Positions 49,457 to 50,505 of a stretch of 64,000 bases of DNA are shown here, one piece after another. The stretch comes from Eledone cirrhosa. Lineage: Eukaryota. Position numbers and translations under genes: made by a program. The notes beneath the pieces are model-generated. The model worked only from the letters and a program-made list of their open reading frames with translations, did not search any database and was not told the origin of the DNA. Within the stretch, counting starts at the first letter, position 1. Every line of letters starts with the position of its first letter. The stretch is from contig OZ024747.1 of the NCBI GenBank assembly GCA_964016885.1, positions 51,336,001-51,400,000 on the forward strand, in the 5' to 3' direction.

Positions 49457-49505
<49 letters not shown>

Positions 49506-49571
49506 GAAGAGAGAAGAAACATTTAGATATAATTAGTAATAAAATGTATCATACCTAAACTGCTCCTAAAT

Positions 49572-49661
49572 TCCTCGACTACGTAGTTTCGTGGCATAAA
49601 CAAAAACAATATATCATAAAGATATAGAGTCCCTGCGAGGTCTGCCGACTTATCAAGAGGA
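49572..49661 (-). ncRNA. Type I hammerhead with U3-A8 core and extended stem II
   Basis: TCCTC TTGATAA GT c GGCA...TATATC tttat GATATA...TGCC AC GAAA CTACGTAG TC/ GAGGA. Confidence 0.8.
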
Positions 49662-50166
49662 TACCTCATTTTACTAGTCTCAAGAACGCGTCTACACGAC
49701 GTGAGAAAGAATCCCAAAAGGCGGAGGGGGAGATAGTCACGCGATATAACGGTCGAGAAACAGAGCTAAGCCTCTTATAACCCCGAAGAAAATACCACGG
49801 AGGCGGAGGGGGTATTTATATCGAGGCCGTAGAAGAGGTGGTGAAGAAGGCGAGAAATATGAGTAATGGAAGCTTTCCAACTGTCCCCACACTTCAAAGG
49901 TTGCTCGACCAGAGGGAGTTATTAACAATATATTTAGAAACACACAGATACATGCGGACACACACATATATACATGAATGCATCCGCACCCAACTGTGAG
50001 TTAAGGGTGCCAACTTCACCGATGTTGCTCAATGAATGACTGGGACAGACCAATTCAGTTGAACTAGACTGAACCAGTATCAGAGTTAAAAATACATTAT
50101 GAAGAGAGAAGAAACATTTAGATATAATTAGTAATAAAATGTATCATACCTAAACTGCTCCTAAAT

Positions 50167-50256
50167 TCCTCGACTACGTAGTTTCGTGGCATAAATAAAA
50201 ACAATATATCATAAAGATATAGAGTCCCTGCGAGGTCTGCCGACTTATCAAGAGGA
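50167..50256 (-). ncRNA. Second copy of the U3-A8 hammerhead
   Basis: Same core and stems, 595 bp away. Confidence 0.8.
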
Positions 50257-50423
50257 TACCTCATTTTACTAGTCTCAAGAACGCGTCTACACGACGTGAG
50301 AAAGAATCCCAAAAGGCGGAGGGGGAGATAGTCACGCGATATAACGGTCGAGAAACAGAGCTAAGCCTCTTATAACCCCGAAGAAAATACCACGGAGGCG
50401 GAGGGGGTATTTATATCGAGGCC

Positions 50424-50505
<82 letters not shown>

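Follow-up and report, generated by a model that had tools for sequence, protein, structure and literature searches.

A young U3-A8 hammerhead retrozyme family in Eledone cirrhosa, with a possible genomic footprint of an edited, probably circular template

A stretch of 64,000 nucleotides of Eledone cirrhosa DNA (contig OZ024747.1, positions 51,336,001 to 51,400,000; here called the window) contains two hammerhead motifs with U3-A8 in the core where C3-G8 would be expected. This locus raises the question of what kind of element carries such motifs, how it has been copied, and whether its core is a variant or the product of decay. An earlier reading made from the sequence alone (the sequence-only reading) had placed two hammerhead motifs with the core UUGAUAA 595 nt apart, and both, of type I, are indeed there, on the minus strand, which that reading had not specified. 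Each copy reads UCCUC UUGAUAA GU-C-GGCA [46 nt] UGCC AC GAAA CUACGUAG UC/GAGGA on that strand, as had been described, with the 5-bp stem I, the palindromic stem III and the GUC site all present in both; the insert in stem II, given as about 50 nt, is actually 46 nt long. U3 lies at 49656 and 50251 and C17 at 49577 and 50172, and the monomer coordinates of that reading were right, the predicted cut-to-cut length being 595 nt from 50171 down to 49577. The whole insertion spans 49501..50426 inside a (TA)n tract; its segments 49501-49831 and 50096-50426 differ at one of 331 positions (49601/50196), with a period of 595. Its features are as follows.

49501..50426, minus strand: insertion, with one full unit between a partial unit truncated at its 5' end and a 3' tail of ~76-80 nt
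50427..50473, no strand: (TA)n flank at the truncated end; the matching TA tract ends at 49500
50172..50426, minus strand: 5'-truncated unit, monomer positions 341-595
49577..50171, minus strand: monomer of 595 nt, bounded by the two predicted cuts and strongly structured (z = -7.1)
49501..49576, minus strand: 3' tail, with the element end at monomer position ~80
50167..50256, minus strand: upstream hammerhead motif, type I; core 50251-50245, predicted cut between 50172 and 50171, stem II extension altered by a single G>A at 50196
49572..49661, minus strand: downstream hammerhead motif, type I; stem I 49661-49657 with 49576-49572, core UUGAUAA 49656-49650, predicted cut between 49577 and 49576
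49578..49587 and, as second copy, 50173-50182, minus strand: palindromic stem III, which can pair between units as a double hammerhead
49601..49635, minus strand: stem II extension, 7-bp and 6-bp helices
49663..49668 and, as second copy, 50258-50263, minus strand: predicted pseudoknot 5' strand, UGAGGU
49636..49641 and, as second copy, 50231-50236, minus strand: predicted pseudoknot 3' strand, ACCUCG, in the stem II internal loop
49923..49928, minus strand: the family's second fixed 3'-end site (monomer position ~244-249), unused by the window copy

No ORF of at least 100 aa was found over the element, and the reverse transcriptase (RT) plus GIY-YIG ORF of an autonomous Penelope-like element (PLE) is absent from it. 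An Rfam scan of the locus gave no hammerhead match at E up to 10, the other matches being microsatellite-driven miRNA noise only, and the repeat finder was swamped by the TA tracts in the window. A TATA-like TATAAATA at 49821-49814 and 50416-50409 (minus strand), ~160 nt upstream of each hammerhead, may be a putative internal promoter.

The locus belongs to a large family. A 26-nt pattern in which positions 3 and 8 were left free matched 5,874 times in the 3.0-Gb host assembly and its control 0 times, so the motif is not due to chance; complete motifs number 6,035, and the family has ~6,000 units. These are dispersed, non-coding units arranged head to tail with one type I hammerhead each, as in non-LTR retrozymes, in arrays of up to ~13 units and without the LTR-retrozyme layout of type III hammerheads in two LTRs.

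Nearly all insertions of the family lie inside (TA)n. Their 5' ends vary, while their 3' ends fall ~80 or ~245 nt past the predicted cut and never at the cut. In a set of 54 position-ordered insertions with at least 93% identity, inverted twins account for 21 and each combine an end near 80 with another near 245; a single end of this sort is present in 19 and 12 more, and the last two are of other kinds. The same two sites are used in an old subfamily. Position ~80 is the commoner of the two, and we infer that reverse transcription starts there. Internal initiation at two sites, giving a tail, is a pattern described for PLEs (PMC11167929; PMC8557442). Judging from the TA target, the fixed internal 3' ends with a tail, the 5' truncation and the inverted twins, which are PLE hallmarks, we conclude that the family is a young one of non-LTR retrozymes and that PLE machinery moves it.

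As to the PLE itself, a very young one with two 3' ends and TA targets is present in the genome, its 784-aa ORF lying between two U3-A8 hammerheads of similar design. One full-length copy of this Hydra-type PLE (L261:3879-7500, in C2:339845000-339852999) has an unbroken 784-aa ORF and hammerheads 3,523 bp apart, and many copies are 100% identical over the 3' end. The ORF motifs RWR, DKT and CxCX5C match the description of Hydra in the available text of PMC8557442; an atlas look-up with the ORF led to RT and GIY-YIG clusters, which we take as a lead, and Pfam and PDB searches with it returned no match. Because the monomer has no nucleotide homology to this PLE, partnership of the two is a guess. 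The very abundant TA-associated GIY-YIG PLE with ORFs of ~1,217 aa (42,714 genomic candidates), a fragment of which lies at 22027-23085 (plus strand) of the window, was set aside as a partner; its hammerhead, read by eye, is C3-G8, and the monomer has no homology to it either.

The hammerhead has three stems, with stem I open and with covariation across subfamilies, and is hence of type I. In a set of 24 sequences chosen to represent the subfamilies, from which decayed copies and core mutants were left out, 99.1% of cells are paired and one stem I pair varies (U-A in 17, U.G in 4, C-G in 3); stem III and proximal stem II are invariant and so add no covariation. In favour of the proposed functional variant, the stems covary across subfamilies; cleavage is predicted, and the insertions do not end at the cleavage site. 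The segment UGAGGU, immediately 5' of stem I, can pair with ACCUCR in the stem II internal loop to give a 6-bp duplex of -8.0 kcal/mol, a value reached by 0.2% of random 8-mer pairs. The end pair of this duplex is U-A in 11, U.G in 11 and C-G in 2 of the 24 chosen sequences; 186 genomic copies are without U at the end position, and where it is C, this pairs with G in 39 of the 40 fetched loci. A 6-bp pseudoknot between loop 2 and stem I, of the kind described in PMC3088659, is thus likely, with support that is moderate because five of the six pairs never vary; the sequence-only reading had missed it.

The 595-nt monomer folds far better than its shuffles (z -7.1). For the natural 926-nt transcript, the double hammerhead costs 7.9 kcal/mol as against 18.0 for two monomer folds, which fits the dimer model for hammerheads with palindromic stem III (PMC6765202). 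The active fold costs ~8 kcal/mol even as a dimer, and nearest-neighbour folding puts the probability of stem I near 0 in the circle and in nascent fragments; as these models ignore pseudoknots, activity is a matter that we infer, and self-cleavage to a 595-nt RNA is a likely prediction. A co-transcriptional window for stem I was considered and is unsupported by the folding models. Dimers of Xenopus retrozymes showed no cleavage in vitro in eight of nine cases (10.64898/2026.07.22.740005). In the predicted circle, monomer positions 1-5 pair with 67-71 (window 50171-50167 with 50105-50101) at a probability above 0.9; with the 3' strand of stem I so engaged, the circle would be protected from re-cleavage. 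A long hairpin directly precedes each of the two 3'-end sites.

What was copied at insertion can be approached from the agreement among units. Over positions covered by at least three units in 130 young-family insertions, 190 variants are present in all units, 156 in one unit and 16 in some units. At 13 A/G sites, which were chosen after seeing the data, alleles are mixed in one of 713 site-by-array cases, where 328 would be expected if units were independent. Editing of a linear multimer would differ from unit to unit, while a single edited monomer read repeatedly would not, so that this agreement fits rolling-circle reverse transcription of what the copies suggest was an edited circle. The main competing explanation, which we consider unlikely but the strongest of those weighed, is that the element, as a PLE pseudo-LTR that is not autonomous, is mobilised from linear multimers produced by read-through, with circles not the main template and with a hammerhead that cleaves rarely or only with protein help. 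It draws on the folding models, which disfavour the active fold, on the report that unprocessed RNA is the main substrate of an Anolis PLE (PMC11167929), which also describes hammerhead cleavage as dispensable for PLE insertion in vitro, and on unit-specific changes in register between inverted arms. Five insertions (L024, L162, L178, L183, and L187) have a unit-specific change shared between arms or periodically, which indicates that templates were multimeric at least sometimes. It has difficulty, however, with recurrent A>G alleles that are in all units or in none, pointing to a bottleneck of one monomer copied repeatedly, and with the scarcity of variants in some units only. The long arrays are not a random sample, since they were found by similarity to one array, and one insertion (L200) has a later duplication of two-unit blocks. 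A 620-nt contig from the X4 sequencing run, made of one unit plus overlap, was discounted because a collapsed DNA array would give the same.

The reading that we prefer, of a single, probably circular template, also concerns the kind of changes found among the copies. A tree of 186 insertions, with its root placed in the old subfamily, gives counts of A>G to U>C of 44:27 on internal branches, 45:14 on array-wide tips and 39:20 on single-unit tips, A>G leading although U is 1.6 times commoner than A. A>G recurs 11 times at position 397, 8 times at 107 and 7 times at 279, and it makes up 14 of the 25 sites with at least three events, U>C none. Variants in several insertions, polarised by outgroup, comprise 20 A>G, 7 U>C, 9 C>U and 7 G>A. 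The 128 A>G events are enriched before a 3' G (1.83 events per site vs 0.5-0.8; p 0.0004), depleted after a 5' G (0.23 vs 0.65-1.18; p 0.02), and more frequent at paired A (109 on 97 sites) than at unpaired A (19 on 53; p 0.0006), which matches the neighbour motif of ADAR as given in the available text of PMC3941102; the same context and pairing bias was sought in the 61 U>C events and was absent. This combination of strand-specific A>G excess, context and paired RNA is found in the young and intermediate subfamilies. In the stem II extension, where an A-run lies opposite a U-run, A>G changes recur among family copies. The A>G share is 12 of 46 among array-wide private variants vs 13 of 278 among unit-private ones.

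The skew is not uniform, being absent in the old subfamily (2 A>G vs 6 U>C), weak in the majority-polarised intermediate set (10:8) and absent among strictly insertion-private variants (12:11). An early count of 11:1 for A>G to U>C on array stems proved to be inflated by one array, the strictly private variants giving the 12:11 just cited, and the case for editing rests on the 186-insertion tree, the unit agreement and the context counts, not on that early count. A second competing explanation is that circles are the template, with the A>G excess owed to something other than ADAR: selection for changes tolerated as G.U, transcription-linked DNA damage at source loci, polymerase error, or recurrence inflated by tree error. 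Such sources are favoured by the concentration of A>G in A-U pairs, which tolerate this change (25 of 78, vs 2 of 78 for U>C), by the old subfamily without skew and by the choice of the 13 unit-agreement sites after the data were seen; we nevertheless hold them to be improbable, less so only than decay of the core, as C>U in C-G pairs, which is tolerated just as well, is not in excess (6 of 72, vs 5 of 72 for G>A), paired A changes more than unpaired A with the neighbour bias of ADAR (PMC3941102), no U>C site joins the 14 recurrent A>G ones, and four-gamete conflicts in the 591-nt subfamily affect 47 of 105 A/G pairs vs one of six others. A search of the literature outside subscription journals, judged by titles and abstract openings and by passages of PMC7186786, listed no paper on editing footprints in retrozyme or retroelement copies; the available text of PMC7229834 brings up editing solely as something that might explain why circRNA is heterogeneous.

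The core itself conforms to N3-UGAN-N8-A, GAAA and UH, with a Watson-Crick pair between positions 3 and 8. The genome search with both positions free, the sequence-only reading having called for a descriptor allowing UUGANAA, gave U3-A8 in 5,851 of the 5,874 matches and C3-G8 in none. Eleven matches are without U3 (5 C, 4 G, and 2 A, all with A8) and 12 have U3 without A8, all being single changes. A C3-G8 core before the same stem II start had one genomic match (L201), fewer than the five of the control, and it is not a family member. In the old 597-nt subfamily, ~83% identical to the young family, U3 is present in 45 and A8 in all 46 of the 46 copies counted, out of 52 anchored, two of the 46 being young-family copies. 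Old and young differ at 92 of 588 columns overall and at none of 21 core and stem III columns, 7 of which were in the search pattern, so that the search itself accounts for part of the conservation seen in the 5' half of the motif, and that over the unbiased 14 columns is no more than suggestive. Since U3-A8 is the family norm and is kept in a subfamily about 17% diverged, it is not decay, and the condition under which the sequence-only reading would have been wrong, a C3-G8 family consensus with two transitions at this locus, does not hold. The idea that the hammerhead is dead, with two transitions due to decay that were spread by amplification, can be practically dismissed: core conservation in the young family says little by itself and activity is a prediction, but the patterns searched for in the genome turned up no C3-G8 relative, the core stays the same over ~17% divergence, the stems covary, and U3-A8 is stated to be active in vitro (PMC3088659).

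What did not hold up is the novelty of the core. Natural U3-A8 covariation in hammerheads has been reported, with earlier in vitro activity cited (PMC3088659), a descriptor for U3-A8 found ~1,300 PLE-type hammerheads in Schistosoma mansoni (PMC4209133), and the genome studied here has further U3-A8 families. The claim of a U3-A8 core is correct and already known; by itself it matters little, beyond the reminder that descriptors and Rfam miss such motifs, and the interest lies in the A>G pattern of the copies. In one insertion (L118, C5:39920684-39921306), U8 replaces A8 in both hammerheads, so a core-broken template may have been copied once.

Further hammerheads were observed nearby and elsewhere. 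At 48684-48655 (minus strand) of the window lies another type I hammerhead with a U3-A8 core, unrelated to the first and short in stem II; the repeat that holds it is 240 bp long, flanked by TA, and has at least 1,404 candidates in the genome. The flanks of L026, L182, and L183 hold three more single U3-A8 candidates in other repeat families. The window also has six C3-G8 type I motifs whose stem I is A/U-rich and 8 bp long and whose stem III is a palindrome, as well as a further candidate seen by eye near 50600-50630 (minus strand):

21344-21398, plus strand: C3-G8 hammerhead
31633-31579, minus strand: C3-G8 hammerhead
46004-46048, plus strand: C3-G8 hammerhead
47218-47173, minus strand: C3-G8 hammerhead
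50893-50847, minus strand: C3-G8 hammerhead
63728-63678, minus strand: C3-G8 hammerhead

More PLE RT/endonuclease fragments, and a LINE with APE and RT domains, occupy 17425-18204 (plus strand), 38189-38640 (minus strand) and 56149-59423 (plus strand). A tandem repeat of TA-rich units with a period of 471-499 lies at 26388-29018, where the hammerhead descriptor found no motif.

Taken together, we consider it probable that this is a U3-A8 retrozyme, likely self-cleaved, whose edited circle is likely copied by a PLE reverse transcriptase into (TA)n. Tandem units would be transcribed by read-through and cleaved, probably as a double hammerhead helped by the loop-2/stem-I pseudoknot, to give a 595-nt RNA that a host ligase would close into a circle, as presented in PMC7229834. 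The circle would refold to hide stem I, its paired regions would undergo A-to-I editing by ADAR, and target-primed reverse transcription would start internally at ~80 or ~245 and proceed round and round into (TA)n, with the enzyme perhaps supplied by the Hydra-type PLE. The observed basis of this scheme consists of the motif, the family size, the U3-A8 state, the stem covariation, the TA targets and the two fixed internal 3' ends, together with the inverted twins, the unit agreement within insertions and the A>G spectrum. We lean, by a small margin, towards each insertion being a fossil of one ADAR-edited circular RNA, with editing as the main mutational engine of the element; the copies, in other words, may well carry the genomic footprint of an edited, probably circular template. 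If so, the genome would document directly, in thousands of arrays, that PLE reverse transcriptase uses retrozyme circles as templates, and would keep a heritable record of editing at the level of single molecules; RNA editing would feed directly into germ-line genome sequence. The circle-as-template step has been proposed for the retrozyme/PLE cycle (PMC4209133; PMC7229834), while uncleaved RNA was sufficient in vitro (PMC11167929); it becomes testable here with thousands of young arrays, named A>G hot spots at which editing of the RNA is predicted, two priming sites and, as a candidate partner, an enzyme whose ORF is unbroken.

Like the non-LTR animal retrozymes (PMC7229834; 10.64898/2026.07.22.740005), the family consists of tandem units that are non-coding and contain one type I hammerhead apiece; its arrays are dispersed, its monomer is highly paired, and PLEs co-occur with it. 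Its 595 nt exceed the 170-400 nt of PMC7229834 and fall within the 51-972 bp of 10.64898/2026.07.22.740005. It differs from them in the U3-A8 core and the 46-nt stem II extension, in a predicted pseudoknot that replaces the usual loop-loop contact, in a circle predicted to hide stem I, and in the ADAR-like footprint among its copies, none having been found for the others in the literature covered by our search. Hammerheads in PLE pseudo-LTRs, among them the U3-A8 variant of the Schistosoma Cercyon elements (PMC4209133), share the U3-A8 core, the palindromic stem III, a stem I of 4-5 bp, the long stem II with a bulged base and the predicted dimer activity; those motifs are, as described there, mostly heterogeneous singles, whereas ours sit in young ORF-free tandem arrays. 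The Penelope-like signature (PMC11167929; PMC8557442) is matched in the two internal starts giving a tail, the AT-rich targets, the 5' truncation and the inverted twins, but the tail is ~165 nt here vs 30-40 bp in PLEs, and both ends have TA-like microhomology to the target, unlike that signature. Compared with the pseudoknotted hammerheads described in PMC3088659, the predicted partner strand here lies in the internal loop of an extended stem II and would pair with the segment 5' of stem I.
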